The translations under genes and the position numbers were made by a program. 64,000 bases of DNA. Source: Escherichia phage vB_Eco_mar003J3. Shown in pieces: positions 1,651 to 40,131 of the stretch. The notes beneath the pieces were generated by a model. That model searched no databases and was not told the DNA's origin. It worked only from the letters and a program-made list of their open reading frames with translations. Every line of letters begins with the position of its first letter. Positions within the stretch are counted from its first letter, which is position 1. The stretch is from the sequence record NC_048203.1. One strand, written 5' to 3'.

Positions 1651-1680
1651 GTACATTTTTAAAATTTCTGCTTGGAGGAG

Positions 1681-2115: not shown

Positions 2116-2124
2116 ATGTAATCT

Positions 2125-2644: not shown

Positions 2645-2661
2645 ATAGTCTCCTAGTTAAT

Positions 2662-2739: not shown

Positions 2740-2744
2740 AAATT

Positions 2745-3343: not shown

Positions 3344-3376
3344 AAATAGTTCCTAATCTTCCAAATTTATGAATAT

Positions 3377-3405
3377 ATTATACAGAAAATTTCGGCATTA
3401 AGCAA
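3377..3405 (-). promoter_or_regulatory. T5-type early promoter (-35 TTGCTT, 17 bp, -10 TATAAT)
   Basis: Minus-strand reading; part of a roughly 60-bp cassette repeated through the early region. Confidence 0.6.
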
Positions 3406-3413
3406 GTGAAATT

Positions 3414-3710: not shown

Positions 3711-3740
3711 GTTTGATTCCTCTCTCGAATTTATAAATAT

Positions 3741-3769
3741 ATTATATAGAAATTTTCTATATTAAGCAA
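3741..3769 (-). promoter_or_regulatory. T5-type early promoter (TTGCTT, 17 bp, TATAAT)
   Basis: Minus-strand reading. Confidence 0.6.
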
Positions 3770-3786
3770 GTGAAAATTTCTGTATA

Positions 3787-3809
3787 ATAGCCCTCGCTTA
3801 GAGGGCTAT
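3787..3809 (-). terminator. hairpin ATAGCCCTC-gctta-GAGGGCTAT just after pnuC stop
   Basis: Perfect 9-bp stem; flanking U-rich run is weak. Confidence 0.4.
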
Positions 3810-3816
3810 AACTACT

Positions 3817-5551: not shown

Positions 5552-5581
5552 ATTTGATTCCTCTCTCAAATTTATAAATAT

Positions 5582-5610
5582 ATTATACAGAGAATTTAGC
5601 ATTCAAGCAA
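5582..5610 (-). promoter_or_regulatory. T5-type early promoter (TTGCTT, 17 bp, TATAAT) for nadR-pnuC
   Basis: Minus-strand reading. Confidence 0.6.
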
Positions 5611-5769
5611 TCGAATTTTTTAACTTTTTAGTGGAAAAAATCTCAAGGCATTTAGTGGTAGCACGTTGTTGCTACAATAATAGTATATGATTCTAAAGAA
5701 TTAAAGAATTAAATACTAAAGACCTTAGTTGAATAACTTATGGGCTTTTCTTTTGCCTTAAATACAGAA

Positions 5770-5800
5770 AAGCCCACGCTCTCGGAGGAAACGCGGGCTT
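5770..5800 (-). terminator. hairpin terminator after SPFH gene
   Basis: AAGCCC...GGGCTT stem followed on minus strand by UUUCUGUAUUU. Confidence 0.5.
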
Positions 5801-5823
5801 GTTTCGAAGATTACGTGTAACTA

Positions 5824-6768
5824 TTACTTATTACGCATATCCATAATCATCTGGCCATCATAACCAGTACCTACAACAGTCTGAGGAACGCCACCCTGAT
5901 ATTTTTCAGCGCGTTTCATATCAACTTCCAGCTGTTTCCAGCGAATCATCTCTGGAGTGATGGTACGCTGCAGAGCGGTGTTAGCTTCAGCTTCTTTCTT
6001 AGCTGCATACAGTTTAGCATCTGCGTCACGTTCGTTAGCTACTGCCATATTTTCACGAGCAGAACGATCAGCCTCAGCTTGCTTAACTTTCTGCTGTGCT
6101 TCTTGTTCAACACGAGCTAGTTCAGCTTTTGCAGCGTTAACTTGTTCTTCACGAACTTTGGTGTTTTGTACCTGTTCCATGATTACCGGTGGCAGAGTAA
6201 TATCCTGAAGGAATACTTGCTTAACGGTGTAGCCATAAGGACGCGCATACTCTTCTACTTCTTGCTGAATAGCGGTTTGCAGTTGAGCCTGAATCTTAGC
6301 GTCGAACAGATCTTGTGCTTTTGGTACAGACTTACCAAACTCACGAATCGTAGACAGCATCTTCTCTTCAACGTACTTGTTCAGAGCTTGATCCTGAGTA
6401 CCTGCGTTAACACGGTTCATAGGAGCTTTAGCACCATCAAACTGCAACATAACTGTAATGTCAACTGTAGACTTAAACTTATCCTGGCTAGGAACCTGAA
6501 GTTTATCCAGTTTCATAGAAATATCTTTCGTACTAAAAGTATCAAAAGAGGCGAATGGGTTGACAATATGGAACCCCGGCAATACAGGATTAGGACTAAC
6601 TTTACCCAGGAAAGTCTGAGTTTTAACCGTACCATCCTGAACAACTGTATAGGAATTGAGAGCCAGAATAAGAGCGCCAAGACCAACTACAGCACCAACA
6701 CCCCAACGTTTAATAGCACGAATTACTTTTTGATCGGAAGTCAGTTCTTTAGTGTTTTTAGTAAACAT
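5824..6768 (-). CDS. SPFH/band-7 (prohibitin/HflC-like) membrane protein
   Basis: 314 aa; N-terminal TM helix, band-7-like core, long charged coiled-coil C-terminus. Confidence 0.65.
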   Translation of the reverse strand: MFTKNTKELTSDQKVIRAIKRWGVGAVVGLGALILALNSYTVVQDGTVKTQTFLGKVSPNPVLPGFHIVNPFASFDTFSTKDISMKLDKLQVPSQDKFKSTVDITVMLQFDGAKAPMNRVNAGTQDQALNKYVEEKMLSTIREFGKSVPKAQDLFDAKIQAQLQTAIQQEVEEYARPYGYTVKQVFLQDITLPPVIMEQVQNTKVREEQVNAAKAELARVEQEAQQKVKQAEADRSARENMAVANERDADAKLYAAKKEAEANTALQRTITPEMIRWKQLEVDMKRAEKYQGGVPQTVVGTGYDGQMIMDMRNK

Positions 6769-6779
6769 ATATTTCCTTA

Positions 6780-6980
6780 TTATTTAGAAGAGTTAGCTAC
6801 TACAGTTACTTTAGTTGCAGAAATAAACAGGCTAGCATCCACAGCAAATTCAGGAGCTTTGATATCTCCGTTATGAAATATGACTATACCGGAGACTACT
6901 TCAAATGCTAGCGCTGTAACATCGGTGGTATTTACTTGTGAATGTTCACCTACTACTTTTACTATATATCGTGTTTTCAC
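6780..6980 (-). CDS. hypothetical protein (66 aa)
   Basis: ORF only. Confidence 0.4.
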   Translation of the reverse strand: MKTRYIVKVVGEHSQVNTTDVTALAFEVVSGIVIFHNGDIKAPEFAVDASLFISATKVTVVANSSK

Positions 6981-7006
6981 TTTATTTTCCTAGCAGTTAA
7001 TAAAAT

Positions 7007-7081
7007 TGGCCGAGGTGACAGGATTCGAACCTGCATAAAGGAATTTAGAAGACTCCTGCCTATCCCTTAGACTACACCCCG
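7007..7081 (-). tRNA. tRNA-Arg (anticodon TCT)
   Basis: 75 nt; acceptor CGGGGTG/CACCTCG, D stem GTCT/AGGC, anticodon stem GGAGT/ATTCC with loop CTTCTAA, T-arm GCAGG-TTCGAAT-CCTGT, CCA. Confidence 0.7.
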
Positions 7082-7687: not shown

Positions 7688-8170
7688 CTAACCAAAGTTA
7701 GTAAATTCTTTATGTAAGGATTCTCTTAATATCTTAGAGGCCTCGAAAGCCTCTTCCGCAGTTTTAAACCCTCTTTTACTGTAATTTTTTCCTTCATGTC
7801 TTACTTGGTATCTCCAGGAAGAGCCTTCCCAACTTACTCCTTTGTACCCAGAAGTATTATTGCATTGTTGGTTTCTATTCGCATTGTTTTGCGATCTAGA
7901 GGCGTCCCTTAGATTATTTTTCCTATTATTTCTAGGATTAGTATCCTTATGATCTACTTCTTCAGGCCTATATCCATAGTACATAATAAACAATAAGACA
8001 TGCAGTTGATAGGTGTCGCCCTGAAATCCCACATCTGGATGTGATTTCTTATTATTGGCACAACACTCTTTCAAACCTTTCTTTGTTTTCCTATATAGTA
8101 TCCCATTATCAGGATCAGCTACAAAATATTTTTCAAGTATTTCTTTAGTAGGGTATTCTTTCCTTTTCAT
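7688..8170 (-). CDS. HNH homing endonuclease
   Basis: 160 aa; EEVDHKDTNPRNNRKNNLR core; SGYKGVSW...WRYQV AP2-like C-terminus. Confidence 0.75.
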   Translation of the reverse strand: MKRKEYPTKEILEKYFVADPDNGILYRKTKKGLKECCANNKKSHPDVGFQGDTYQLHVLLFIMYYGYRPEEVDHKDTNPRNNRKNNLRDASRSQNNANRNQQCNNTSGYKGVSWEGSSWRYQVRHEGKNYSKRGFKTAEEAFEASKILRESLHKEFTNFG

Positions 8171-11058: not shown

Positions 11059-11760
11059 TCAAATTTTGATTTTTTCGATCATGACGGCTACACAATAACT
11101 TTCAACTAAAGCATCGAATGCTGGATCATGCTTCACAGGATAGATTCCATAACGAATGGTGTCCATCTTTTCCATTTTAGCTTTTGCCCAGCTAGTACCT
11201 TCGGCTTCTAGATCTTTATAGCTATAACCAGCTTGCATCCACTGATTACGGAAAGATCGAACGTTACCTAAGTTCCAGAATTTCCACGGAACTATTTCTT
11301 CATGGGTTCCGGCATGGAACGTATTTGCAGAGTAGATTGTCATATCAAACTCTGGGCCATTGCCGTAATACAGAGCATTATCTCCTAGAGACAATTCCAT
11401 AATGTTCTGAGCCATAGAGAAGGCAGCATAATTAGAGCCTACGTCATTAGTGCAGTGATGCTTACCATCACGGAAGGCAATCAGTTTAGGATTACGACCA
11501 TTTAGAGCCTCCATAATATGGAGCGCAGATGGACTGTTTTTAGCTTGATCCATCCAGAATGCAATAGTAGAGGCAGTTACCTTAGCACCCGCATTAAGCT
11601 GATCTTGAACGTCTAGAGTAACGAATACCAGATCAGGATCTTTATCAATTCCGTGCATCGCTACAAAAGCGAAAGAAGGCATTGCAATATGAGTAGTACC
11701 GCAATTTCCTGGAGTACCTAGAGATTCAATGTCTAGCATACCAAAGGGCTTGAATTTCAT
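11059..11760 (-). CDS. DEDDh-type 3'-5' exonuclease (DnaQ-like fold)
   Basis: 233 aa; LDIESLG (motif I D-x-E) and HDPAFDA (H-x4-D). Confidence 0.55.
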   Translation of the reverse strand: MKFKPFGMLDIESLGTPGNCGTTHIAMPSFAFVAMHGIDKDPDLVFVTLDVQDQLNAGAKVTASTIAFWMDQAKNSPSALHIMEALNGRNPKLIAFRDGKHHCTNDVGSNYAAFSMAQNIMELSLGDNALYYGNGPEFDMTIYSANTFHAGTHEEIVPWKFWNLGNVRSFRNQWMQAGYSYKDLEAEGTSWAKAKMEKMDTIRYGIYPVKHDPAFDALVESYCVAVMIEKIKI

Positions 11761-14023: not shown

Positions 14024-14602
14024 TTATTCTCCAATTACTAAAACATCATGTTGAGAAGATACACCACACATATAATCTGCACAATGCGTAAAAGCCAGAT
14101 CAATGATTTCAAATATATCATCTACATCTAAATCTGTGGCTCGACAATCCGCAATAGCTAAACCTGTACGAATACTGGAAAGTACATCTTCTCCTCCACA
14201 GCCTACACCGGCATATTCAACTTCTAGAATAGAAGCATTAGATTGGAAAATAAAGATTCTTCCTTTGTAGAGCATAATAAATTGTCCCAGATTAGGTTCA
14301 GCATATTTTTCATTTTTCTTTTCGCCAAAATCTTTCTGGTTAAACATATCACGTAGTTTAGGTACTATTTCCGTATATAAATATTTATCATCGGAAATAT
14401 CTGCTAAACGTGGTGGTACAGTAAAGCTATGCTCTAGTAATTGTCCCATGTAGAAGGAACTAGTGTATCCGAAGTACAAATCATCAGAGATTTTGAATAC
14501 TTTCGGATTTTTAACCAGCAGTTTCGTATAGCCATTAGAACCCATACGATCACCAGCTAAGTATACTTTATCTTTATATTTAAATGCTACTATGGCTGTC
14601 AT
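14024..14602 (-). CDS. HslV-like / proteasome beta-type Ntn-hydrolase peptidase
   Basis: 192 aa; MTAIVAFKYKDKVYLAGDRMGSNGY resembles the HslV N-terminus as recalled; glycine-rich GVGCGG; Thr at position 2. Confidence 0.55.
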   Translation of the reverse strand: MTAIVAFKYKDKVYLAGDRMGSNGYTKLLVKNPKVFKISDDLYFGYTSSFYMGQLLEHSFTVPPRLADISDDKYLYTEIVPKLRDMFNQKDFGEKKNEKYAEPNLGQFIMLYKGRIFIFQSNASILEVEYAGVGCGGEDVLSSIRTGLAIADCRATDLDVDDIFEIIDLAFTHCADYMCGVSSQHDVLVIGE

Positions 14603-21112: not shown

Positions 21113-21601
21113 TTATTCATGTCTGGCGAATTCGCCATGTAAACTTTCTCGCAGCTTAACTGCATACTCATTAGCTTCTTCTGGAGAATTGAAACCACTC
21201 TTAGAGTAACATTTACCAGCAATAGTAATTTTTACCTGCCAGTATGTGCCATTCTTATATACGCCTTTATAGCCAGAAGAATTATCTTTTCTTAGTCTAG
21301 TATTACATGAGTTTTGGGTATGGGTTGCTTCTCTTAAATTTCCTGGTCTATTATTAAGAGTATTACCGTCTTCATGATCTACTATGTTTTCTGGTTGATA
21401 CCCCCTACCCATAATAAAGGAGATAATATGGGCATAGTAATATGTGCCCTTAAAAGATACTTGTACATACCCTGATGAAGTAGCCGATCCTGCTCTCTTA
21501 ACTTTACCTGATTTCAGGCGTCTCATTAAGATTCCAGTAGAGTCATCTATAAAGAATACTTTCTCCAGCTCTTCTTTGGGCGGGTAGATTAATTTTCCCA
21601 T
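21113..21601 (-). CDS. HNH homing endonuclease
   Basis: 162 aa; IVDHEDGNTLNNRPGNLR; SGYKGVYKNGTYWQ AP2-like. Confidence 0.75.
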   Translation of the reverse strand: MGKLIYPPKEELEKVFFIDDSTGILMRRLKSGKVKRAGSATSSGYVQVSFKGTYYYAHIISFIMGRGYQPENIVDHEDGNTLNNRPGNLREATHTQNSCNTRLRKDNSSGYKGVYKNGTYWQVKITIAGKCYSKSGFNSPEEANEYAVKLRESLHGEFARHE

Positions 21602-22759: not shown

Positions 22760-22959
22760 CTACAATTTTAAATAAGCCTATGACATTGCAGTTAAATAAA
22801 AAATTTGCTTGCTTATAGAGGGAGATGTATGATACTAGATAATCATTTTATATCGCGTACATGGGCGCGGGATTATAGTATAAAATAGGGTAAGGTGTCA
22901 ACAACAATTTTCCAAAAATTGAGCCAGATCAAGTTACTTAGCTCTTTAGAAAATTTATA

Positions 22960-22988
22960 TTGACATACGCCTTCAAATGAGCTATAAT
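22960..22988 (+). promoter_or_regulatory. consensus sigma70 promoter (TTGACA, 17 bp, TATAAT) for nrdD
   Basis: Perfect hexamers; SD GAAGGAG precedes ATG at 23018. Confidence 0.7.
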
Positions 22989-24899: not shown

Positions 24900-24932
24900 A
24901 GCCAGGTTGCTAGTCGACCTGGCTTTTATTTT
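24900..24932 (+). terminator. rho-independent terminator after nrdD
   Basis: AGCCAGGT...ACCTGGCT stem followed by TTTTATTTT. Confidence 0.6.
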
Positions 24933-24963: not shown

Positions 24964-24980
24964 TGTACAAGGAGGGCTAA

Positions 24981-25667
24981 ATGGTACGAAGGAAGTTAGA
25001 TAAAGACACTATCAATAAAGATTTAGAGCCGAGAAGAATTAAGCTAATAAGTGAGTATTCTGGAATCCTTAATAAAGGCACATTCATATGTAGTGTAGGT
25101 CATACATGGGAAGCTACTGTTAATAATGTAAGGAATAGCAAATCTGGCTGTCCAATATGCGCAGGTACTTTTAAACTTACTAAAGATTCGGTAAATGAAG
25201 GGTTACGTAGTAGGGGTATTACTCTTATTGGAGAGTATAAAAATAATGCTACTAAAACTCTTTTTGAATGTGAGCATGGGCATAGGTGGGAAGCCACAGT
25301 AGGCAATGTAAAGAATAAAAATTCTGGGTGTCCTGTGTGCGATACTGATTGGAATACCCCTGGTTTTATATACATTATGCGTAGTAGTATGGGAACTAAA
25401 ATAGGAATTAGTATCTCTCCTGAAAGACGGTGGAAAGAGATAGTTAAAAGCTCCAATATACTAGATTTATATATTTTTGGTGTCTATTCAATAGATTCTG
25501 GTACCAAATCTAAAAGTAGGTCTATCGAGAAACAGACTCATGAATATTTTTCAGAATATAGATTAAAGTATACAGGATTTGCTGGATGTACTGAATTCTT
25601 TGATATATCTCCCATAGCCGTAGAAAAGCACTTAATTAATAATGGGTGTATAAAGGTAGAAAAATAA
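24981..25667 (+). CDS. putative homing endonuclease: duplicated zinc-ribbon module plus GIY-YIG-like core
   Basis: 228 aa; two repeats of W-EATV-NV-N-SGCP-C; then GFIYIMRSSMGTKIGIS...RRWKE. Confidence 0.4.
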   Translation: MVRRKLDKDTINKDLEPRRIKLISEYSGILNKGTFICSVGHTWEATVNNVRNSKSGCPICAGTFKLTKDSVNEGLRSRGITLIGEYKNNATKTLFECEHGHRWEATVGNVKNKNSGCPVCDTDWNTPGFIYIMRSSMGTKIGISISPERRWKEIVKSSNILDLYIFGVYSIDSGTKSKSRSIEKQTHEYFSEYRLKYTGFAGCTEFFDISPIAVEKHLINNGCIKVEK

Positions 25668-25676
25668 ATAAAGTAC

Positions 25677-25705
25677 TTGCTTATATTACTTTTATTTGAT
25701 ATTAT
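25677..25705 (+). promoter_or_regulatory. T5-type promoter (TTGCTT, 17 bp, TATTAT)
   Basis: Plus-strand reading. Confidence 0.5.
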
Positions 25706-25732
25706 ATTATTATAAATTAGAGAGGAGGGTGT

Positions 25733-26092
25733 ATGAAATTAAAACCATTTATTGTTGTATCTAAACTAGGGCATTATCACGTAGGAGTAGATACAATTCA
25801 GGAAGCTATTTTTGCTGCTACAGGTGATTACTCATTACTAGAAGGTATTGGGTATCCTACATTACTAGGTGACTTCGTAGAGCAAGAACTAGATATTACT
25901 GTCTATAATCCTATATATGAAGAACCTGAAGACTTAAAAGAGACTCTAGAATTTGTATACTGGAACCACTTACAAGTATTTAATGTTACCTCTAATGGCA
26001 CAGAGGATTTCTCTTCTGCTATTAAGTATTATATTAAACAAGTTTACTATGATTATTTCTATGAGGATATTGGAGCGGAGCTAAAAGTATGA
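25733..26092 (+). CDS. hypothetical protein (119 aa)
   Basis: SD GAGAGGAGGG upstream. Confidence 0.5.
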   Translation: MKLKPFIVVSKLGHYHVGVDTIQEAIFAATGDYSLLEGIGYPTLLGDFVEQELDITVYNPIYEEPEDLKETLEFVYWNHLQVFNVTSNGTEDFSSAIKYYIKQVYYDYFYEDIGAELKV

Positions 26093-26319
26093 AAAACGTA
26101 AAACATCTTAAGTATCGCTTAATTTACAACGGACGTATGGAAACAGAAGATCTAGCTCAGCTAGCGATCAATTCAGATGAAGTTACAGTTCGTGCTTTGT
26201 CCATCGAGAAGCTGCGTGCTTCTTACGAAAATCATATTATGGAATTAGAGGAGAGACTTTATGGATTTCTTGAATCAGAAGCTAAAAGTAACCCAGGGGA
26301 CAGGCCTTCTAAGCAATAG
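26089..26319 (+). CDS. hypothetical protein (76 aa)
   Basis: ORF, start overlaps previous stop. Confidence 0.45.
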   Translation: MKNVKHLKYRLIYNGRMETEDLAQLAINSDEVTVRALSIEKLRASYENHIMELEERLYGFLESEAKSNPGDRPSKQ

Positions 26320-26371: not shown

Positions 26372-27211
26372 GTGAGGAATTGTACAGTGCGTAGATTAAT
26401 TATTATTAGCGGTGCAGGTTTGAGTGTTGGAAGTGGTGTACGAGCTTTTCGTACTGATACTGCTAGTGGTAAAGCACTGTGGGATGATTATGATCTAGAA
26501 GAAGTATGTAATATTCATGCCTTTCGTGGTAATTTTTATCATAAAACCCATATGTTTTACAACAAGCGTCGTGAAGAGCTAAAAACTGTTGAACCCAATC
26601 TTGCACATTTGCGTATTGGTGAATGGTATAAACAATATCCAGGTCAAGTAGTAAACTTGACTACCAATGTTGATGACCTTATTGAACGTGCTGGCGTTCC
26701 ACATAGTGACATTCTGCACATTCACGGATATTTAAAAGAGGTTGTTGTAGCTGACAGCTACAATAGTAGTAATAAACGAATTATTGATGTTGGGTATAAC
26801 TCTATTGACCCAGATGATTATAAATGGGTTAAACCTAATGTAATCTTCTTTGGTGAGCATGCTCCAGCATATACAGAAATGTACAATGTTTTTGATGGTA
26901 TTACCAGTCAAGATATGATCATTGTGGTTGGTTGCTCTAACCAAGTAATTAACTTCTACTGGGAATTATTTCCTGTTCTTAATTTGACTGCTGCCAAATT
27001 AATGGTAGTTAACTACTATGATAGTGCCCTGGCGACAGAGCCAGGCTATCAAGGTATGACTCGTAGTGAGATGTACCAGCTGGAAGAACGCGGTATCCCT
27101 TACTGGAGTAAAGGGGCTGTAGATGCCTTCAGTGACCCTGATTTTATTGCTCGTGTAGAAGCTCATCTAGAGGGTAGACCTTATATGCCGGGGAAACAAA
27201 TATGTCCATAA
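26372..27211 (+). CDS. Sir2-family NAD+-dependent deacylase / NAD-utilising enzyme
   Basis: 279 aa; ISGAGLSVGSGVRAFR (GAGIS...GIPxFR-like), TTNVDDL (TQNIDxL-like), HG dyad. Confidence 0.7.
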   Translation: MRNCTVRRLIIISGAGLSVGSGVRAFRTDTASGKALWDDYDLEEVCNIHAFRGNFYHKTHMFYNKRREELKTVEPNLAHLRIGEWYKQYPGQVVNLTTNVDDLIERAGVPHSDILHIHGYLKEVVVADSYNSSNKRIIDVGYNSIDPDDYKWVKPNVIFFGEHAPAYTEMYNVFDGITSQDMIIVVGCSNQVINFYWELFPVLNLTAAKLMVVNYYDSALATEPGYQGMTRSEMYQLEERGIPYWSKGAVDAFSDPDFIARVEAHLEGRPYMPGKQICP

Positions 27212-27384
27212 TTAAATCTGTGTATACACACCCTGATGATATATTTGTATGGGCGGATGGTAGTTGGTGCTACCGATGTGAGCTATGGGAAATGGACTAT
27301 AAATCTGATGACTATGGTGTCATATATGTTGATACGGTTGAGTATGATACGTTCTTAGAAAGGGACAAAAATGGAAATAAGTAA
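27202..27384 (+). CDS. hypothetical protein (60 aa)
   Basis: ORF only. Confidence 0.4.
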   Translation: MSIIKSVYTHPDDIFVWADGSWCYRCELWEMDYKSDDYGVIYVDTVEYDTFLERDKNGNK

Positions 27385-27877
27385 TACTCCTGTGATTTTC
27401 CTGGATATTGATGGGGTGCTCAATTCGAGCATCTCTCACCATCATGCTCCAGATAGTGAGAAGCTATTCTTTGGTGGTGATTGGGTTTACAAGCCATTAC
27501 TCCAGGCTTTTAAGAACTTTCTTAAGCCATCCCCAATAATGATTGTTTGGGTATCTTCATGGTTTTCTGTACGAAACGAGATGGAGAACGTCCAGATTAT
27601 GACCGGACTCGGTTTGATCGATCGTTTTCTTGGTACTACAGATTTTACTGGTGGCGGTTTATCTCGTGGTAATTCTGTCTTACGTTTTGTCGAAAAATAT
27701 AAGCTCAAGCATTGGTGTGTCCTAGATGATGCTGGTGCTATGATGTATCAATTTCCTACTGTTATTGTAAATGGCAGGACTGGAATAAACCTTCAAGATT
27801 TAAATGCTATCAGCTATATGCTGGAGTTTAGTCCAGATCTTGAAATGTGTAAGGCTCTTCAGAAACTTAAGGTGTAA
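27371..27877 (+). CDS. HAD-superfamily hydrolase (phosphatase/nucleotidase-like)
   Basis: 168 aa; motif I FLDIDGVL near N-terminus. Confidence 0.6.
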   Translation: MEISNTPVIFLDIDGVLNSSISHHHAPDSEKLFFGGDWVYKPLLQAFKNFLKPSPIMIVWVSSWFSVRNEMENVQIMTGLGLIDRFLGTTDFTGGGLSRGNSVLRFVEKYKLKHWCVLDDAGAMMYQFPTVIVNGRTGINLQDLNAISYMLEFSPDLEMCKALQKLKV

Positions 27878-27879
27878 AT

Positions 27880-28308
27880 ATGTTCAATAATATTTTCATG
27901 AAAGAGGTAAATCCTATGCTTCTCAACTTCTGGCGCTCTCTCCCTAATGGTATGTATAATGAAACCATCAATCTGCTCAAGATTTGGTGTGAGAATAACG
28001 ATATCTTCTTATCCTTTAAAGGCCCGCTAGAGGAAGCTCCGTGTATTGGAGTTAGCGTGGATTTAGGGGAGGGAGTAGAAGAGATTGTAGACTGGAAAGA
28101 ACTCGATGAAATGGGTCTGGTTTTTGCCTTGAATCATAAGCTGTTTATGCCTGCAAATCACCGTCTTATTGTAAATTATCGCACTGGTGAAGCTCCTGCT
28201 TTCCAGGTAAATGAACGTGAGGGCTGGTCATATTCGCCCGAGGAAGTAAATGAGGGGATTCAGAAACTTCGTCGTTTCGGGTATATGATCCCAGGTTTAA
28301 CTGCTTAA
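27880..28308 (+). CDS. hypothetical protein, paralog A of tandem pair
   Basis: 142 aa; shares W.ELDEMGLVFALN...GYMIPGL with next ORF. Confidence 0.5.
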   Translation: MFNNIFMKEVNPMLLNFWRSLPNGMYNETINLLKIWCENNDIFLSFKGPLEEAPCIGVSVDLGEGVEEIVDWKELDEMGLVFALNHKLFMPANHRLIVNYRTGEAPAFQVNEREGWSYSPEEVNEGIQKLRRFGYMIPGLTA

Positions 28309-28317
28309 GGAGGCAGA

Positions 28318-28713
28318 ATGGAACAAGTATTTTGGCGTCAGATAGATCCTAGTTTGGTAGAGCGTGCTGAGGGGCTCCTTGCACGTTGGTTGGGGGTTGA
28401 CAAGGTTAGTGTAACATTTCCGTTTACTTCTGTAACAGACCCTAGTGTAGGTGTCTTTGTGGACGAAGGTGAAGATGATGGTTGGGAAGCTGACTGGAAT
28501 GAATTGTCCAGCATGGGCTTGATTGTTGCCCTCAACTTCTCTATATTCCATCCACGTGGCTTAGCCATTACACGTGACCCCGAAACTGGTGAATCCCCTT
28601 ATCTTTTGCAAGTAGAAGATGATATTTGGGAGTACACCGAAGATATTCTCGAAGAAGCTAAAACTCAATTAGATAGTGTTGGGATCTATGTACCAGGCCT
28701 AAATGATGATTGA
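28318..28713 (+). CDS. hypothetical protein, paralog B of tandem pair
   Basis: 131 aa; W.ELSSMGLIVALN...GIYVPGL. Confidence 0.5.
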   Translation: MEQVFWRQIDPSLVERAEGLLARWLGVDKVSVTFPFTSVTDPSVGVFVDEGEDDGWEADWNELSSMGLIVALNFSIFHPRGLAITRDPETGESPYLLQVEDDIWEYTEDILEEAKTQLDSVGIYVPGLNDD

Positions 28714-28785
28714 TTTTCATTAACTAAACTCTATAATCCGGACTATTAGTGCTCGGATTATTACCTAATCTTTCCAGTCGATTGA

Positions 28786-28833
28786 TTGTCAAAATAAATT
28801 GTCATTGACAATTTGGATGGATTATGTAATAAT
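28786..28833 (+). promoter_or_regulatory. candidate promoter with palindromic operator-like repeat
   Basis: ATTGTCA-T-TGACAAT perfect palindrome containing TTGACA, 17 bp from AATAAT. Confidence 0.35.
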
Positions 28834-28852
28834 ATATGTATTGGAGGTGAGG

Positions 28853-29305
28853 ATGTCATTCACACAGCAGGAACTTTTAGATAACTTCCGATATGAAGAT
28901 GGTAAGTTATTTAGAACTACAGGAAGAAATGCAGGGAAAGAATGTTGTGTTTCTACGGGTAACGGATATTATCGTATATCTCTAGGGAATAGGACTATGC
29001 TTCGGCATAGAGCAATATTTTTAATGCATCATGGATACTTACCTGATTTAGTAGATCATGTGAATACTATAAAAGGCGATGATCGTATTGAAAATCTTAG
29101 AGAGCAGACAGTATCCGGTAATCTAAGAAATATCAAATATAAGAAAGGAATGCATGTTTACCCTTCTGGTAGTAAGAACTGGCAAGTAGTATTTACTATT
29201 AATCGTAAACGAGTAGTTAAAGGAACATATGATAACTATGAAGTTGCATGTTCTATGGCCAAGATGTTTAGAGGTCAATTATACGGTAGAGAATCAATCC
29301 AGTAA
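28853..29305 (+). CDS. HNH homing endonuclease
   Basis: Start at MSFTQQ (SD GGAGGTGAGG); LVDHVNTIKGDDRIENLR core. Confidence 0.7.
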   Translation: MSFTQQELLDNFRYEDGKLFRTTGRNAGKECCVSTGNGYYRISLGNRTMLRHRAIFLMHHGYLPDLVDHVNTIKGDDRIENLREQTVSGNLRNIKYKKGMHVYPSGSKNWQVVFTINRKRVVKGTYDNYEVACSMAKMFRGQLYGRESIQ

Positions 29306-29313
29306 AATTTCAT

Positions 29314-29343
29314 TTGCAAGGGAGTATTATTTTATAGTATAAT
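29314..29343 (+). promoter_or_regulatory. sigma70-like promoter (TTGCAA, 18 bp, TATAAT)
   Basis: Heads a roughly 490-nt ORF-free leader. Confidence 0.45.
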
Positions 29344-29837
29344 ATTCCCATAAATGAGAGACATTAGTAAAAATTGATTTTGCTAATTTTTCTTGTTTAC
29401 AATCCGCAATACGGAACAGTTAGGCTGCCCCATTAAGGGTTGTTTTAACTATTACTAGTGTTTATACTGCATTAGTTAATTATCAATTAAGTGATCTGCG
29501 TACCCTGAATTCGGAAAGGTAAATCCAAACCGTGCATATTTAGCTCGTTATATAGGCAGAGCTTTATATGGGGGTGCGAACGAAAAGAGCAGCGAATGGT
29601 GACACGTCCAGTAGCCACCTACCAATAGGATAGTGAGGGCAATCAGAATCGGCTTAGCGGCCAATGACCTAGGTTCTGATCTGGATAAGAGTTAAGAGAG
29701 CGCAGCACTGAGGTATGATAACTTATTCATACTGCTTGATGATTATTAATGTTTGTGTAAATGGTAGTAATAGTTGTTCTATTCTTTTGAATAGTCCTAA
29801 AGAAAGATATCCGAATAACCAACATAGGAGTATTGTT

Positions 29838-32627
29838 GTGTTCTCAATCCTACAAGGTCACGCAGGATTTTCCAGAGATAAAGCCACTGGCATCTGGAAA
29901 GAGATCAAAGTGGAAGATTACACCTTTGCAAAGCGATTCTCTAAAGAGCATCCAGAAGGTAAACCAGCTTCCATGCCCTTCAAATTTGACGTACTTGAAG
30001 AACTTGACCCGCAAAACCTTGCTGAAATGTTACCTATCATGCGTCGTCTTACCAAAGACCCGCATATTGTAGCTATTCGTGGTAAATGTCTAGCTCCAAA
30101 AGATAATGTGCGTCGTACCAGAGGAAACTTTAACGTATCCAATCCTAGTCATATTATCGCTATGGACGTGGATGGTATTGTAGATACTGGTGGCTATGAC
30201 AAGTTTAATCTTGTTGGCATGGCACGTCATATTATTAAGATGTTGAATAGTATTAGTGAGGATATGTTTCCTCTTGATGCAGGGTTTATTGCTCATGCAT
30301 CGTCTTCGGCTGGATTAAAACCAGGTATCCGAATGCACTTAATGCTAGAATCTAATGTCAAGGTAACGCAGGGGCAATTAAAATTCTTATTTACATCCAT
30401 CAATGACAGTAGTAAGCAAAAGTATGGCTTTGATATTGCTGACTTAGCTTATTATTCTTCTGTTCAGCTTCACTATTTCGCAGATCCCTTATTTGATGAT
30501 GGTATAGTCGATCCGTTTAAAGCGGAGAATAAACCACGTCTTGTGTATGTTAAGGGTTCGAAAGTGAATCTACCCAATAACCTAGTTGACTTTGAAACAA
30601 CTAGAGGTGAGTTTAAAGAAGAATTCTACTCCTTACTTGACCAAATTAAAGGCAAGAAGGCTGCATCTGATAAAGTGGAAGAAACCATCAGCGAACTAGA
30701 AGAAGCTGAGGATGGGGTGTACCTGCGTATTATCCCAAAACTTTATCACAGAGCGTTAGAAGATGGTGTTGACTTTACGTGGTTAGAACGTGAGATTAAA
30801 CCAGCTTTATCTGAATATATTGCAACTAAAGATAATAGTCGTAATATTCAAGATTACTTTAATAACGGTCGTAAGCAGGCTCTCAAAGCCTTTGTAAATA
30901 ACTCCAAACGTGAGATTCCACCCAACTTAAAAGGTGTACCATTAAAACGTCTGGACACAGATTCTCCACCAGAAGTTCCATACCTGAAAATTAACATTGT
31001 ACCACCAAAAGGACATTTAACATTTGTTAAGGCAAGTCTTGGTACGGGTAAAACTACAGCAGTAACTAAGTGGCTAGATGCAGGTGTTCTTCCAGGGAAC
31101 TTTATTGCAATCACAAATACTAGGGCACTTGTATCTTCTAACGCGAAGAAATTCGGTGCTGGCCAGTATGATAAGTCAGTTGATATGCTGAACTTCAAAC
31201 GTGGTGCTATTGATCGTATGTCTTCAACTATTCACTCTATCCATAAGTTCAAGAGCTTTGTGGGTCAGATTGATACGATCTTTATTGATGAATGTGACGC
31301 AGTAATGAATGATCTGTTATTCGCTCCTGTTGTTAAAAACCGTCGTGAATGTATTCAGGTTCTTCGTGATATCCTTATTACTGCTAAAACTGTTATCTTA
31401 TCTGATGGTGATATCAGTGCAGAAACGATTGAAGCCTATGGTTCTTTGATTGATTTTGATAAACCAGTTGCATTCTATAATCATCACCGTAAAATGCTGG
31501 CGAAAGCTCACGCTTATGAATTCCCTGACGAATCCAGTATTTGGGTTGCACTTCAAACATCTCTAGAGATGGGTGAGAAGTCAATCCTAGTATCTGACTG
31601 TGGACCAGATGAACTGAATGAAAAGGGAATGGCGTTACGTCGTAATACTGGTGCGTTAGTTAAAGAAATTCACTCAAACTCTACGTCTGATATAGATATC
31701 AGACGTATTCTGGATTATACAACTAATGAGCTAATTGATCAACAGATTGATTGTTTGTTATGTAGTCCATCTGTAACTAGTGGTGTTGACTTTAACTATT
31801 TTGATAACGTATTCGTAATCACTAGAACCTCAAACCAAGCGCCAAACATGCGTTTTCAAGCAATCAGGCGCGACCGTGGTGCTCAGAACATTTATTATTT
31901 TATTGATAAATCTACGAGTGGATTCTCTGCGGGTTCCGAGCAATATAATATTGACGAGGGTTGGATTGAGTTAGCTCAGCAACTGTACGCACGCCGTCGT
32001 GAGCTGGAATCTAGAAACTATACCAGTACTTTGCGTTATTATCTTCTCGATCAAGGTGCAACTATTGATATCTTCAGTGAAAGCTGGGGGACTATCGAAG
32101 GTGCAGGCAAAGAGTATACAGAAGAGCGAATCAAAGCTATTCTGCACTCAACTCCTGAATATTGCGCACCACGTCATGCAGATGCCTATGAAGCCAAGTT
32201 ACTTCTGGTTCGCTATTATCATCTGGATTCTATTAAAGATGTAACAGTGGAACACGTTGAACAGTATATCAAGGATAAACCGAATGATCGAGCTGCATTT
32301 TTCCATAAGATGCACGAGATGTTCTGGGAAGATATTAAAAAGTGTTCAAACGTAACAATCAAACCGTTTATCGAAGCTCTTAAGAATAAGAAGAAAGATT
32401 TCTTCCTTAAGACAGGTCAGAGCGCTAACCCAAAGTATGCTCGTATGTATCTTGGCATGATGGGTATCGGTAAAGATCTGGATACGGAAAAGATTGTGGA
32501 CTGGTACAGAACTTACTGTAAGATCGAATGTATGCCGATTCCAGTTAAGTTTATGACAGATGAAGAACGTCAGATGCATGAGGAAGCTCTTGCTGAATTG
32601 GGAGCTAGAAATGACAGTGAAGAATAA
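29838..32627 (+). CDS. P-loop NTPase, putative replication origin-binding / SF2 helicase-like protein
   Basis: Central Walker A GTGKTTAVT, DE-type Walker B FIDECDAV; start set to GTG after GGAG; track start 29715 rejected. Confidence 0.5.
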   Translation: MFSILQGHAGFSRDKATGIWKEIKVEDYTFAKRFSKEHPEGKPASMPFKFDVLEELDPQNLAEMLPIMRRLTKDPHIVAIRGKCLAPKDNVRRTRGNFNVSNPSHIIAMDVDGIVDTGGYDKFNLVGMARHIIKMLNSISEDMFPLDAGFIAHASSSAGLKPGIRMHLMLESNVKVTQGQLKFLFTSINDSSKQKYGFDIADLAYYSSVQLHYFADPLFDDGIVDPFKAENKPRLVYVKGSKVNLPNNLVDFETTRGEFKEEFYSLLDQIKGKKAASDKVEETISELEEAEDGVYLRIIPKLYHRALEDGVDFTWLEREIKPALSEYIATKDNSRNIQDYFNNGRKQALKAFVNNSKREIPPNLKGVPLKRLDTDSPPEVPYLKINIVPPKGHLTFVKASLGTGKTTAVTKWLDAGVLPGNFIAITNTRALVSSNAKKFGAGQYDKSVDMLNFKRGAIDRMSSTIHSIHKFKSFVGQIDTIFIDECDAVMNDLLFAPVVKNRRECIQVLRDILITAKTVILSDGDISAETIEAYGSLIDFDKPVAFYNHHRKMLAKAHAYEFPDESSIWVALQTSLEMGEKSILVSDCGPDELNEKGMALRRNTGALVKEIHSNSTSDIDIRRILDYTTNELIDQQIDCLLCSPSVTSGVDFNYFDNVFVITRTSNQAPNMRFQAIRRDRGAQNIYYFIDKSTSGFSAGSEQYNIDEGWIELAQQLYARRRELESRNYTSTLRYYLLDQGATIDIFSESWGTIEGAGKEYTEERIKAILHSTPEYCAPRHADAYEAKLLLVRYYHLDSIKDVTVEHVEQYIKDKPNDRAAFFHKMHEMFWEDIKKCSNVTIKPFIEALKNKKKDFFLKTGQSANPKYARMYLGMMGIGKDLDTEKIVDWYRTYCKIECMPIPVKFMTDEERQMHEEALAELGARNDSEE

Positions 32628-35124: not shown

Positions 35125-35343
35125 TTGATGAGAGGATCAATTATGGCAATGACAATAACACTTCCAAAGATTCAAGCAAAACTTAATTTGCTCTCCATAG
35201 CAAGAATCAATTACCAGGATAGTATCGGCACTCCAAACCAGAAAGCGTACAAAGATGCGTGGTTGAAAGAAGCTGCTGATTTAGCTGGTATGGCTGCGCA
35301 GTATAGTAAAGAACTCAAAATGGAAATCGCAGATGATGAATAA
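35125..35343 (+). CDS. hypothetical protein (72 aa)
   Basis: SD GAGAGGA upstream. Confidence 0.45.
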   Translation: MMRGSIMAMTITLPKIQAKLNLLSIARINYQDSIGTPNQKAYKDAWLKEAADLAGMAAQYSKELKMEIADDE

Positions 35344-36307
35344 TGTAAAAGACTTTATTAAACGTTGTCAAGAAGCGTACTACCAGGGAATGAGTCTTAT
35401 TTCCGATGAAGAATATGATCGTCTGATTAAAAGATTCCCACTAGAGGAAGAAATCGGACCGAAAGGTGATATCCCTCATTTGTATCGTATGTATTCTTTG
35501 CAGAAAGTCTATTACGATCGTGGTGATAAAGCTCCATTCAACCCACTTGGTCAGGTTGAAACTGATAAGTTAGATGGTTGTGCGATTTCTCTATTATATA
35601 TTAATGGTGAGTTTGTTCAAGCGTTAACTCGTGGTAACGGTATTCTAGGAAATGATGTAACGCATAATGTTAAAATGCTGAACATCCCCAAAACTATTTC
35701 CCAAAAAGTACCAACTCAAATCACTGGTGAAGTTCTCATTACTAAAGAAGTAGAGAACAAACGTAACTATGCTTCTGGTGCTATTAACCTGAAAGATAGT
35801 GATGATTTCATGCAACGTATTGGTGAAGGTGGTTTAATCTTCGTTGCATATGGTATCCAGTGTTCAGCGGAAACAGTCGGTATTACAGAAGCCTATTTAA
35901 AAGATATGCTTTGGCTAGAGAATGAGAACTTCTTGACAGTTGTTAATGTTCGTTCCTTTTTTAAATGGATTCCGACGGACGGTAAAGTTGTTCGTATTAA
36001 CGACAACAATAAATTCTTCCGTGAAGGTTGGACTAATAAATTTCCTCGTGGTGCATTTGCTATTAAAGAGGATGAAGAAGGCGAAATTACCACACTTGTT
36101 AAAGTTGAATGGCAAGTAGGGGCTTCTGGTAAAGTAACTCCAGTTGGTTATTTCGAGCCGGTGATTATTGATGATGCCACAATCGTTAAAGCAACTCTTA
36201 ATAACGTTGATTATATTAACGCTCTCGATTTAGAGATCGGTTGCCAGATTCGAGTGATTCGTGCTGGTGGTGTAATCCCTTGTATAGTAGAGCGAGTATA
36301 CGACTAA
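35333..36307 (+). CDS. NAD+-dependent DNA ligase, adenylation (N-terminal) subunit
   Basis: 324 aa; LISDEEYDRL Ia-like start and KxDG adenylation motif KLDG. Confidence 0.8.
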   Translation: MMNNVKDFIKRCQEAYYQGMSLISDEEYDRLIKRFPLEEEIGPKGDIPHLYRMYSLQKVYYDRGDKAPFNPLGQVETDKLDGCAISLLYINGEFVQALTRGNGILGNDVTHNVKMLNIPKTISQKVPTQITGEVLITKEVENKRNYASGAINLKDSDDFMQRIGEGGLIFVAYGIQCSAETVGITEAYLKDMLWLENENFLTVVNVRSFFKWIPTDGKVVRINDNNKFFREGWTNKFPRGAFAIKEDEEGEITTLVKVEWQVGASGKVTPVGYFEPVIIDDATIVKATLNNVDYINALDLEIGCQIRVIRAGGVIPCIVERVYD

Positions 36308-36506: not shown

Positions 36507-37289
36507 TTGATGAAAATCGAAATTCCAACACAATGTCCCTCTTGTGGTTCTAAGCTAGATCTTGTCAACGGGCAATTATTCTGTAGGAATAAGTCCAACT
36601 GTCCAGCACAATCAAGTAAGTTAATCGAGAACTTCTGCACAAAAATGAAGTTAAAGGGCTTTGGCCCGAAAACTATTGAGAAGCTGGAACTGACCAAGAT
36701 CTCAGAACTGTTTTACCTGACCGAAGAAGATTTGGTCGGAGCTGTGGGTAGCAAGGTTGCCGCTAAGTTGATTAGCGAGTTAAATACTAAGGTTCGCGGA
36801 GACATTGACTTTGGTTCGGTTCTCGGTTCTTTAGGAATTCCTCTTATTGGAGAGGTTGCAGCAAAGAAACTGTCCCAAAATTGCACTAGCTTCCACGATG
36901 TGAAGGCTGACGGCAAGGCTGGAGAAAATTACAAAACCTGGCTAAATTCCCCACAAGGCAAGGATGTTATTGAATTACCCTGGAAATTCTCAACTGGTAT
37001 TCGAGGTACTAAAGCTGATATCATCATTACGGATGATTTAGTTGCCCAGCCAAATGGAATCACGATCTGTATTACCGGATCTTTGCAAGATTTTGCAAAT
37101 CGAACGGATGCAACAAACTATTTAGAAAGTCTAGGATATACGGTTAAGAAATCCGTTACCAAAGACGTCAAATACCTAATCTGTGAGGATGAATCAAAAC
37201 GTTCTTCCTCATCTTATAAGAAAGCCGAAACGAATGGGATAGAAATCCTGTCGATTAAAGAACTATTGGAGAAAAATAATAATGTCTAA
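36507..37289 (+). CDS. NAD+-dependent DNA ligase, C-terminal subunit (Zn-finger, HhH, BRCT-like)
   Basis: 260 aa; CPSCGSKL...C..KSNCP zinc finger, then HhH-like and BRCT-like regions. Confidence 0.7.
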   Translation: MMKIEIPTQCPSCGSKLDLVNGQLFCRNKSNCPAQSSKLIENFCTKMKLKGFGPKTIEKLELTKISELFYLTEEDLVGAVGSKVAAKLISELNTKVRGDIDFGSVLGSLGIPLIGEVAAKKLSQNCTSFHDVKADGKAGENYKTWLNSPQGKDVIELPWKFSTGIRGTKADIIITDDLVAQPNGITICITGSLQDFANRTDATNYLESLGYTVKKSVTKDVKYLICEDESKRSSSSYKKAETNGIEILSIKELLEKNNNV

Positions 37290-38131: not shown

Positions 38132-39604
38132 ATGACCTTGTTTAACGTGCAAGCTGTAGTGTTGAAGATGCTTCTCGCTTCTGAACAGAAGCAAATAGCA
38201 TTGGAAACATTCTCAAAACTGCATAAAGATCATTTTAATGACGCTTTCTCCTCAATTTACCAAGCCGTCCAGAATTATTATAAGAAATATAACGCAATGC
38301 CGTCCATTGACGCACTGATGCTTGAGGCCAATAGGAACGCCCGCCTTTCTCAAGCTCTTGTCGTCTTAGCTAACACTCAAATTCCAGAAGTGAGCATGGA
38401 ACAGGCACTTGAAGTCCTAGAAGCTGAATATACACAGGATCTATTCCTGAAACTTCTAGAAACAGACGTGCTTCAAGATTTAACAATGCTGGATCAGGGA
38501 GAAATTCTCAATCGAGTTGCCTCCCTTCACTTAAAATTAGAAGAGAAAGTAACGAATACTGGAAAGGTATTCAACGCAGACACAATGCGTATTTTCCAGA
38601 GAGAAGAAGATACCAAACTGAACTTGATCGCTCTTGGTATTTGTAATGAGTTCGACGCTCAAATTGGTTTAGCTCGCACAGAAACGTTACTGCTTGGTGG
38701 TTGGCGTGGTACTGGTAAATCCATTATCTGTTCAAACATACAGGTTCAGCAATATTTGAATGGGGATATTGCTCCATACTTCTCAATTGAGATGAAAGAA
38801 CATGAAGTATTTAGACGTAATCTAGCCATGTTAGCTGGCGTATCAGCACTAGCAATGCGTAATAATACTCTAGAAGGTGCAGCTCTGTTGAGATTAGCCA
38901 GAACTAGAGCTAGGATGTTTAACGGCGGTGAAGAGCTTTTCGATAACTTCGTTAAACAGTACACAATGGCTAAGATGAGTGATTTCTACGATATGGAAAG
39001 TAAGCTAATAGAAGGGTATGAGCTACATACTCCTATGATTATTGTTTATGACCCTGAACTGTCCATTACAACAGTTGACGTAGAATTAAATAAATTAGTT
39101 GCTAGATATGGTGATAAAGTTACAGTAGCTTTACTGGACTATATTAACCAAACCCGACTTCCAGACTCTAAAACCATTGATATGTATGACTGGAAAGAAC
39201 AGATGGTTGTTAGCTCGTCTTTCAAATCTATCTGCCAGAAACATAACGTGGCTGGTGTAGCCCCTTACCAGATCGATCAAGATGGTAGAACACGTATGTC
39301 AAAGGGGATTCTTGATTCCGCAGACATGGCTGCTAATCTTAATGCTGCAAAAGCTGATAATGGTCAAGGTGCTATTATGTTTGACTTCGTTAAGACCCGT
39401 TCTTCTGATAGCGTGAAGTTTATGCCTAAAATGAACTGGGAAACCCTACGGATGGATAACACTACCAACCTAGCAATGGAAGATATATCTCAAATGGAAG
39501 CTGAGTTCGTTATCCCTATTGAGAAGGATAAGCCGGCTCAATCTAAACGTGCTAAGAAAGACAAAGCTGAAAATTCAACAGGTGAACAGGCCAGCGATAT
39601 ATGA
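38132..39604 (+). CDS. DnaB-like replicative helicase
   Basis: Start moved to MTLFNVQ (SD AAGGAG); Walker A GGWRGTGKS; RecA-like C-terminal domain. Confidence 0.65.
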   Translation: MTLFNVQAVVLKMLLASEQKQIALETFSKLHKDHFNDAFSSIYQAVQNYYKKYNAMPSIDALMLEANRNARLSQALVVLANTQIPEVSMEQALEVLEAEYTQDLFLKLLETDVLQDLTMLDQGEILNRVASLHLKLEEKVTNTGKVFNADTMRIFQREEDTKLNLIALGICNEFDAQIGLARTETLLLGGWRGTGKSIICSNIQVQQYLNGDIAPYFSIEMKEHEVFRRNLAMLAGVSALAMRNNTLEGAALLRLARTRARMFNGGEELFDNFVKQYTMAKMSDFYDMESKLIEGYELHTPMIIVYDPELSITTVDVELNKLVARYGDKVTVALLDYINQTRLPDSKTIDMYDWKEQMVVSSSFKSICQKHNVAGVAPYQIDQDGRTRMSKGILDSADMAANLNAAKADNGQGAIMFDFVKTRSSDSVKFMPKMNWETLRMDNTTNLAMEDISQMEAEFVIPIEKDKPAQSKRAKKDKAENSTGEQASDI

Positions 39605-40131
39605 TAACACAGGAACGACTAAAAGAACTGTTTGACTACTCCCCAGATACTGGGGAGTTTACTAGAAAAGTATCTAGAGGCAATCAGAAAGCTGGTAGTA
39701 TTGCGGGTACTCTAGATAGTGGATACATACGGATAAAGGTAGATAGAAAATTATACTTTGCACACCAACTAGCCTTCCTATATATGGAAGGATATATGCC
39801 AGAGGAAGTAGACCATATTAATCGAATTACTTGGGATAATAGATGGATTAATATTAGGCCATCCACCCGGCAAGAAAATAGCAGAAATAAAACAGCTAGA
39901 AGTAAATCTGGATACTTGGGAGTTTTCTGGTTTAAGCGGGATCACAAATGGCATGTAAGAGTAGTAAATTCTATGGGAGAAAAAGTTCACGGTGGGCTCT
40001 TTAATTACGCAGATCTAAAGCTTGCAGTCACTAAAGCCAATGAACTACGTCTACAATTACATGGAGAAAATGCTGTTCAAGAGATCTTTGATCCAACTAA
40101 GTATCCTTCACTGGAGGAGTTAAATTCATGA
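39601..40131 (+). CDS. HNH homing endonuclease
   Basis: 176 aa; EEVDHINRITWDNRWINIR; paralog of 16436-16948. Confidence 0.75.
   Translation: MITQERLKELFDYSPDTGEFTRKVSRGNQKAGSIAGTLDSGYIRIKVDRKLYFAHQLAFLYMEGYMPEEVDHINRITWDNRWINIRPSTRQENSRNKTARSKSGYLGVFWFKRDHKWHVRVVNSMGEKVHGGLFNYADLKLAVTKANELRLQLHGENAVQEIFDPTKYPSLEELNS

Follow-up and report, generated by a model that had tools for sequence, protein, structure and literature searches.

The sir2 gene and its product

We analysed a 64,000-nucleotide stretch of Escherichia phage vB_Eco_mar003J3 (NC_048203.1), a T5-like phage of the Demerecviridae (Markadamsvirinae); this whole stretch is called the window below. The gene of interest, sir2, is an intact open reading frame (ORF) at positions 26372-27211 of the plus strand, which in the ORF list and its translation encodes a Sir2-family product of 279 residues from a GTG codon at 26372. 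Judged from its sequence, the product is a canonical sirtuin-type protein, predicted to use nicotinamide adenine dinucleotide (NAD), with an intact active site and no zinc module. An alternative GTG at 26387 would give 274 residues and has a GAGGA Shine-Dalgarno sequence 8 nt upstream, while the first GTG has AAGGA 5 nt upstream. Both starts are plausible, and the GenBank start in the T5-like records HildyBeyeler, bombadil and vB_Sen_I1 is equivalent to the one at 26387. Residues are numbered throughout in the 274-residue form, and the positions of the features are collected in Table 1.

As a finding, the gene is an ordinary one. In T5 the annotation of sir2 goes back to the genome paper; the gene stands in about 1000 phage records and already has a published functional prediction. 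At the nucleotide level it occurs in 232 phage records, labelled mostly as a Sir2-like protein or NAD-dependent deacetylase, and at the protein level its relatives occur in 999. The closest of these is in Escherichia phage vB_EcoD-Elw (99.6% identical), and a homologue on one viral contig of 121,750 bp is 94% identical. The T5 counterpart is T5.102, assigned to phrog_2162.

Table 1. Positions of the sir2 gene, its conserved motifs and the other genes discussed (aa, amino-acid residues)
Feature	Position	Strand	Remarks
sir2 coding sequence	26387-27211	+	PF02146; phrog_2162; AlphaFold2 model pLDDT 92
GAGLSVGSGVRAFR, aa 9-22	26411-26452	+	NAD-binding Rossmann motif and cofactor loop; aligns with CobB GAGISAESGIRTFR
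FYNKRR, aa 57-62	26555-26572	+	Tyr58/Arg61 = CobB Y92/R95
TTNVDDL, aa 92-98	26660-26680	+	nicotinamide/ribose pocket motif; Thr93 replaces canonical Gln of TQNID
HIHG, aa 111-114	26717-26728	+	predicted catalytic His113 = CobB H147; aligns with CobB HMHG
Small-domain segment, aa 115-148	26729-26830	+	replaces zinc ribbon; 0 Cys
KPNVIFFGE, aa 149-157	26831-26857	+	substrate-channel 'FGE' loop; V152 = CobB V187
GCSNQVINF, aa 182-190	26930-26956	+	G-x-S NAD motif, then V-I-N/D-F; CobB: GTSGHVYPA
orf60	27202-27384	+	small acidic protein overlapping the sir2 stop; phrog_5116; pI 4.3
HAD_SAK_2 phosphatase, 168 aa	27371-27877	+	PF18143, E 5.6e-19; DxDG (FLDIDGVLN) and VLDDAG intact
DUF7415, two paralogous genes	27880-28308, 28318-28713	+	end of operon
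PnuC-like transporter	3817-4509	-	PF04973, E 4e-43
NadR-like protein	4496-5602	-	nicotinamide mononucleotide adenylyltransferase and ribosylnicotinamide kinase; no helix-turn-helix; PF13521 and PF01467
Split NAD-dependent DNA ligase	35333-36307, 36507-37289	+	PF01653 and PF03120; BRCT/HhH

Family and fold

The protein matches the Pfam family PF02146 (SIR2) over positions 1-178 of the 180 in the model (E 3.4e-24; 86.2 bits, with the cut-off at 24) and PHROG 2162, 'Sir2 (NAD-dependent deacetylase)', over 266 of 277 positions (E 3.5e-120). PF02146 was its sole match in the Pfam scan, which returned nothing of the PF13289 type or of SIR2_2. Sequence-profile scores against solved structures were highest for CobB (108 bits), followed by Sir2Af1 (85), SIRT5 (76), Sir2Tm (61) and SIRT2 (45). 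An AlphaFold2 model built from 69 diverse homologues reached a predicted local distance difference test score (pLDDT) of 92 and a predicted template-modelling (TM) score of 0.89. With this model, Foldseek returned CobB, Sir2Af1 and SIRT5 as the best matches (E 1e-17 to 1e-13; target-normalised TM score 0.83 at E 1e-17), a ranking that agrees with the one by sequence, and defence-type SIR2 proteins were absent from its top 50 matches. The PADLOC defence models gave zero matches to the protein at E 0.01.

A preliminary description of this DNA had called the product a Sir2-like NAD-utilising enzyme and had proposed a structural comparison with sirtuins and with defence-type SIR2 proteins. The PF02146 match and a His/Asn/Asp constellation that is invariant in the 69 homologues agree with such an enzyme, as predicted from them, and the comparison places the model beside CobB, Sir2Af1 and SIRT5.

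Active-site residues and their conservation

Conservation was counted over the 69 homologues, which share less than 80% mutual identity, and the alignment register to CobB was fixed by mutant CobB chains in the Protein Data Bank, including Y92A. The Sir2 signature blocks listed in the preliminary description, GAGLSVGSGVRAFR, TTNVDDL and HG, are all in place. Within the first block, S13, S16, G17, F21 and R22 are invariant, and the same holds for Y58, R61 and R62, for T93, N94, V95 and D96, and for H113 and G114. The substrate-channel loop keeps K149, P150, V152, F154, F155 and E157 in every homologue and G156 in 57 of 69. Around the last NAD motif, G182, S184, V187 and F190 are invariant, with C183 in 58 and I188 in 68. 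Position 189 is Asn in 52 homologues, Asp in 17 and Pro in none, so that the canonical V-x-P peptide-binding loop is altered across the clade.

CobB A76, Y92, R95, Q129-N130-I131-D132, H147 and V187 map to C41, Y58, R61, T93-N94-V95-D96, H113 and V152 of the phage protein, and the FGE, GTS and V-Y-P elements map to F155-G156-E157, G182-C183-S184 and V187-I188-N189. The Tyr/Arg pair that binds acidic acyl groups in class III sirtuins (Y92/R95 in CobB, Y102/R105 in SIRT5) is kept as Y58/R61. The alignable residues that engineering studies of CobB assign to the acyl pocket (A76, Y92, I131 and V187) correspond to C41, Y58, V95 and V152, all invariant. From this pattern of conserved catalytic and pocket positions the enzyme seems to be active. 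Its pocket for small groups, with the class III Tyr/Arg anion site, appears to be strictly constrained.

Compared with characterised sirtuins, the clade shows three departures: the zinc ligands are lost, Thr stands for Gln in the TQNID motif, and V-I-N/D-F stands for V-x-P. The phage protein thus shares with CobB, Sir2Af1 and SIRT5 the fold, the NAD-binding and catalytic residues, the Tyr/Arg pair and the FGE loop, but is only about 25% identical to CobB, has Cys in place of Ala76 in addition to the three departures, and ends in a 65-residue C-terminal region that holds a clade-specific insertion. All 69 clade members are acidic by whole-protein charge, with a median isoelectric point (pI) of 5.2 and a median net charge of -12 (range -6 to -20); the pI of the CobB core is 5.4.

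Loss of the zinc module and distribution of the clade

The only cysteines of the protein are C41, C183 and C273. The segment aligned with the CxxC...CxxC of CobB contains none of them, in agreement with the earlier remark that no zinc-ribbon Cys tetrad is visible. The segment is modelled confidently as a three-stranded sheet. A Cys4 zinc module is typical of the PF02146 family and is not required for membership.

A clade-profile search over 1.84 billion representative proteins returned 161 clusters at E <=1e-30 and 2298 at E <=1e-10. Among the best 150 relatives, those with Thr at position 93 mostly have two or fewer cysteines (36, against 8 with three or more), whereas those with Gln mostly have three or more (80, against 10 with two or fewer). 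Thr93 and the loss of the zinc cysteines are associated with a Fisher P of 5e-16 in a test that ignores kinship, and the association may merely mark one clade. Cys41 is kept in both the Thr93 and the Gln93 groups. The only domains fused to the sirtuin in long distant relatives are WG repeats, LRR repeats or a further Sir2 domain, and they gave no functional hint.

Outside phages the clade is rare. A scan of one genome per species over 185,579 species found six weak clade loci, and the sole zinc-less one lies on a phage-like contig, flanked by NAMPT and, on the opposite side, by endonuclease VII-NrdD-NrdG. The zinc-less Thr-type sirtuin is therefore essentially confined to phages. All seven NCBIfam models of the CobB type (NF040867, NF001753 and related) scored under their cut-offs, for example 97.2 against 243 and 87.7 against 320 bits. 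We rejected a CobB orthologue captured from a host, given the identity of about 25%, these scores and the near absence of the clade from the species genomes. The best explanation is a phage-restricted clade derived from class III (CobB/SIRT5-like) sirtuins.

Sirtuins of KVP40 and other large Vibrio phages have been described as canonical and zinc-less, modelled on CobB and proposed to be deacetylases (PMC5107563). Relatives from Vibrio phages were found by tblastn at about 40% identity. They form a distant branch that keeps the loop proline (I-N-P; PMC5107563), whereas the T5-type clade has Phe after the Asn or Asp.

The early operon and its mosaic structure

The gene lies in an early plus-strand block, as the preliminary description had it. 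The block starts at a perfect consensus promoter at 22960-22988 and runs from nrdD through sir2 and the primase to the ligase. This promoter is one of two perfect sigma-70 consensus promoters (TTGACA-17/18-TATAAT), placed back to back at 22872-22988, which separate the minus-strand nucleotide-metabolism genes from the plus-strand nrdD/sir2/replication block, and a strong terminator-like hairpin follows nrdD on its 3' side (24900-24924). The same order is kept in all T5-like loci examined: promoter, nrdD, an optional homing endonuclease, small ORFs, sir2, orf60, the HAD phosphatase, two DUF7415 genes, an optional HNH endonuclease and the primase. From sir2 through the second DUF7415 gene the ORFs overlap or lie no more than 10 nt apart, and we therefore read them as one operon. 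T5.102 (PHROG 2162) is the same gene in the same synteny, from nrdD through sir2, the small ORF, the HAD gene and the two DUF7415 genes to the primase.

Two genes downstream of sir2 lies its informative neighbour, a phosphatase of the family PF18143, 'HAD domain in Swiss Army Knife RNA repair proteins' (HAD_SAK_2). Compared by sequence with solved structures, this protein gave nothing significant. Between the two lies orf60, whose family (60 residues, phrog_5116) corresponds to T5.103 and T5.104 in T5, where it is duplicated. The family stands directly 3' of sir2 in 30 loci, two of them without other T5-type neighbours, and its divergence follows the sir2 allele and not the HAD gene.

The locus is mosaic. 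Positions 26380-27370, which hold sir2 and orf60, are about 100% identical to the Tequintavirus vB_Sen_I1, while the flanks at 26108-26286 and 27398-31000 match the Epseptimavirus bombadil with 95-100% identity; the sir2 of bombadil itself reaches only about 83%. In contrast to the T5-type locus, a Tequintavirus-type sir2-orf60 cassette is thus set here in an Epseptimavirus-like backbone. The shared exchange and co-divergence point to sir2 and orf60 as a cassette in which the two products would cooperate, and orf60 may be a partner or regulator of Sir2. A second sir2 allele type, with about 52% protein identity, occupies the same position in four T5-like loci (L039, L040, L044 and L045).

Homing-endonuclease genes lie at 24965-26085, 28722-29338, 21113-21601, 39601-40131, 2834-3343 and 7688-8170. 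They include a T5orf172/GIY-YIG type with treble-clef zinc fingers (24981-25667) and several of HNH_3, and at least the intervals 24965-26085 and 28722-29338 are insertions relative to bombadil. The early region of the minus strand encodes a proteasome-subunit-like ORF (14024-14602), an Rv2179c-like 3'-5' exoribonuclease (11059-11760) and an SPFH/Band 7 protein (5824-6768).

The one functional datum that we found comes from a CRISPRi-ART screen of T5, in which knock-down of T5.102-T5.106 was scored 'Not Fit' and knock-down of T5.107 'Fit' (PMC11879866, supplement file 16). The lack of a fitness defect on T5.102 knock-down in the laboratory host fits an accessory, condition-dependent gene.

Relation to the NAD economy of the phage

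The window holds a PnuC-NadR gene pair, on the opposite strand and 21 kb from sir2. Experiments with the orthologues of phage Bas30 showed that they take up nicotinamide riboside and restore NAD+ in the face of Sir2-HerA defence, and this anti-defence module has been named NARP3 (PMC13464706). The preliminary description had pictured sir2 as consuming the cofactor that this module would supply. The genes are real; the coupling is loose. The full-length NARP3 module occurs in about 201 phage records against 999 with Sir2 relatives, and phage Lindwurm carries sir2, while the NARP3 query matched it over 55 nt only. An obligatory coupling of the two was rejected on these grounds. The phage also encodes a split NAD-dependent DNA ligase, whose halves carry the labels ligase A and ligase B subunit in the HildyBeyeler record. 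At least two NAD consumers, the predicted one, Sir2, and the ligase, would thus profit from NARP3; Sir2 and NARP3 do not form a functional pair.

Gene neighbourhoods in other phages

Iyer et al. (2022; PMC9503650, section 3.7.3) distinguished a phage sirtuin clade and predicted for it a KptA/Tpt1-like, NAD+-dependent removal of RNA 2'-phosphates. Their third neighbourhood type, typified by the T5-like phage SP15, places the sirtuin beside a Swiss-army-knife HAD phosphatase (PMC9503650), and the sir2-HAD_SAK_2 operon described here reproduces it. We tallied neighbourhoods over 59 viral loci, which represent few independent lineages. HAD_SAK_2 was the neighbour in 28 loci, a module centred on Rnl1 in 13 and singleton contexts in 2; in about 15 the neighbours were all of unknown function.

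The second type of Iyer et al. is reproduced in Salmonella phage PVP-SE1 (L028), with an Rnl1-type RNA ligase, cREC, a P-loop kinase, Sir2 and an ATP-dependent DNA ligase, and MazG further on. Variants of this module occur in 12 more rV5-like loci and in phage HMD-6 (L064). On an unrelated 607-kb contig Rnl1 lies two genes 5' of a distant Sir2, and on a 279-kb contig Sir2 is flanked by DUF4326 and a deoxyribosyltransferase-like gene. The phAPEC8-like Escherichia phage PaulScherrer (L063) has a phosphoesterase, cREC, Rnl1, kinase, DNA ligase and MazG without Sir2 among them; three small ORFs of unknown function take its place, with NAMPT and phosphoribosyl pyrophosphate synthetase nearby. In relatives of PaulScherrer, Sir2 lies elsewhere in the genome, beside genes that have no known function.

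In the present window, phmmer found no homologue of Rnl1 or of the polynucleotide kinase (PNK)-like kinase, and neither a kinase nor cREC lies beside sir2. The genes that flank sir2 here and in L028, L059 and L060 encode no Macro domain. Six tRNA genes (Glu, Tyr, Leu, Met, Ser and Arg; 961-7081, minus strand) form the edge of a T5-type tRNA region and are relevant to any hypothesis of tRNA repair. In all T5-like loci and in L057, L058 and L065 (Sir2 identity 41-46%), nrdD lies within a few kb of sir2, which could reflect ancestral synteny or a functional link; L065 also has a NAMPT gene near sir2.

A deacylase as the preferred reading

We tentatively favour an NAD-dependent accessory protein deacylase, and not an NAD-destroying weapon, as the role of Sir2. 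We infer its activity, its deacylase chemistry and its substrate as follows. The enzyme would bind NAD+ and then expel nicotinamide, and the ADP-ribose would go onto an oxygen nucleophile held in the tightly conserved pocket, with His113 driving the second step. The likeliest substrate would be acyl-lysine on proteins of the host or the phage, deacylated at an early stage of infection; the acyl group would be acetyl or, in view of the retained Tyr58/Arg61 pair, an acidic one such as succinyl. Sir2 would be expressed from the early plus-strand block, together with orf60, HAD_SAK_2 and the two DUF7415 proteins of its overlapping operon.

Several lines of evidence argue for this reading. As far as the alignment can tell, all residues comparable with characterised sirtuins are kept, including the hydrophobic lysine channel and, with the variation at G156 (57 of 69), the FFGE loop. 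The canonical SIR2 family is the only one matched, and the best structural matches of the predicted model are the deacylases CobB, Sir2Af1 and SIRT5. The clade is uniformly acidic, like the CobB core, which suits a protein substrate better than RNA, and several lineages, phAPEC8-like and others, carry sir2 without RNA-repair neighbours. The window has no Rnl1 homologue, and a T5.102 knock-down that leaves fitness intact in the laboratory is what one would expect of an accessory modifier.

Other points weigh against it. Literature searches yielded no experimental work on phage sirtuins and no biochemical data on any member of the clade. The protein scores far under the CobB cut-offs (97 against 243 and 88 against 320 bits), two elements of the peptide cleft are altered clade-wide (the zinc ligands and the V-x-P loop), and the canonical Gln of TQNID is replaced by Thr. 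Enzymes of nucleic-acid end processing adjoin the gene in at least three lineages, which led Iyer et al. to another substrate. The argument from charge is a crude one, and since the primase was likewise scored 'Not Fit' (PMC11879866), the sensitivity of the CRISPRi screen is low.

Alternative activities

Repair of RNA (or other nucleic-acid) ends by a KptA/Tpt1-like reaction is possible, if less likely than not, and comes close behind the deacylase. In the first step the 2'-phosphate on a cleaved tRNA would attack NAD+, and in the second an attack by the ribose 2''-OH, assisted by His113, would release ADP-ribose 1'',2''-cyclic phosphate and leave a clean 2'-OH. The remaining steps would fall to HAD_SAK_2 in T5-like phages, or to cREC, the kinase and Rnl1 in rV5-like phages. 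The two-step chemistry of sirtuins is formally analogous to that of Tpt1. Functional analogy is all that could be shared (two-step NAD-dependent transfer and a cyclic ADP-ribose product), since KptA/Tpt1 has an unrelated fold of the ADP-ribosyltransferase superfamily and no homology to sirtuins.

The genomic context speaks for such a role. HAD_SAK_2 shares the overlapping operon here and accompanies sir2 in nearly half of the viral loci, the rV5-like orthologue stands between Rnl1, cREC and the PNK-like kinase on one side and MazG and the DNA ligase on the other, and the 607-kb and 279-kb contigs add to the list. These associations with genes of RNA end processing are repeated and partly independent; they nevertheless come from few lineages. 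The invariant anion site of Tyr58 and Arg61 could accommodate a phosphate, and the altered peptide cleft, with no zinc and no V-x-P, fits a substrate other than a peptide, but the hydrophobic residues of the lysine channel are still invariant.

To the prediction of Iyer et al. (PMC9503650) the present analysis adds counter-indications. The protein is acidic, as is every member of its clade. The T5-like window lacks the ligase and the kinase of the pathway, and with only a sirtuin and a phosphatase a cleaved tRNA would not become ligatable again. In the phAPEC8-like phages the module is complete, with Sir2 outside it, and the other recurrent neighbours, nrdD and NAMPT, are not RNA enzymes. The more specific proposal, in which Sir2 is no deacylase but a sirtuin-fold Tpt1/KptA analogue that strips 2'-phosphates from damaged tRNA (or ADP-ribosylates its phosphate ends), acting with HAD_SAK_2 and perhaps regulated by orf60, we consider rather unlikely.

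Transfer of ADP-ribose to a protein or nucleic acid, as by SirTM, would let Sir2 reprogramme or disarm a host or phage target. Sirtuin folds are capable of such transfer (SirTM systems, reviewed in PMC9503650), Thr93 and the altered cleft could favour it over deacylation, and ADP-ribose-processing domains flank the gene at one locus. We judge it improbable all the same: the neighbours examined include no Macro-domain partner, the defining context of SirTM, and in its catalytic His and its class III pocket the protein matches deacylases exactly.

A free NADase that depletes NAD+, one of the activities that the preliminary description had named for a candidate host-takeover or anti-defence effector, is very improbable: the Sir2 domains of defence systems are NADases and sir2 is early and dispensable in the laboratory, but the protein matches PF02146 alone, has no similarity to PADLOC defence SIR2 proteins and finds its nearest structures among deacylases, grounds on which we rejected a defence-type identity; it would moreover oppose the phage's own NAD-dependent ligase and NAD-rebuilding NARP3 genes, and a plain hydrolase would not need so strict a conservation of the substrate channel. 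With the defence NADases (ThsA, DSR1/2, SIR2-HerA and SPARSA) it shares a distantly related Rossmann-type NAD-binding domain; unlike them it is phage-encoded and single-domain, has no sensor or partner ATPase, and has a phosphatase and DUF genes as neighbours.

Significance for T5-like phages

T5-like phages contest NAD+ with their hosts, in that NARP3 rebuilds what defences of the Sir2-HerA type destroy, and a conserved phage enzyme predicted to spend NAD is therefore worth biochemical study. If Sir2 were an RNA 2'-phosphotransferase, the sirtuin fold would gain a new class of reaction, and phages a new answer to anticodon-nuclease defences. If it is the deacylase that we favour, it would join the small number of phage enzymes known to alter lysine acylation in the host.

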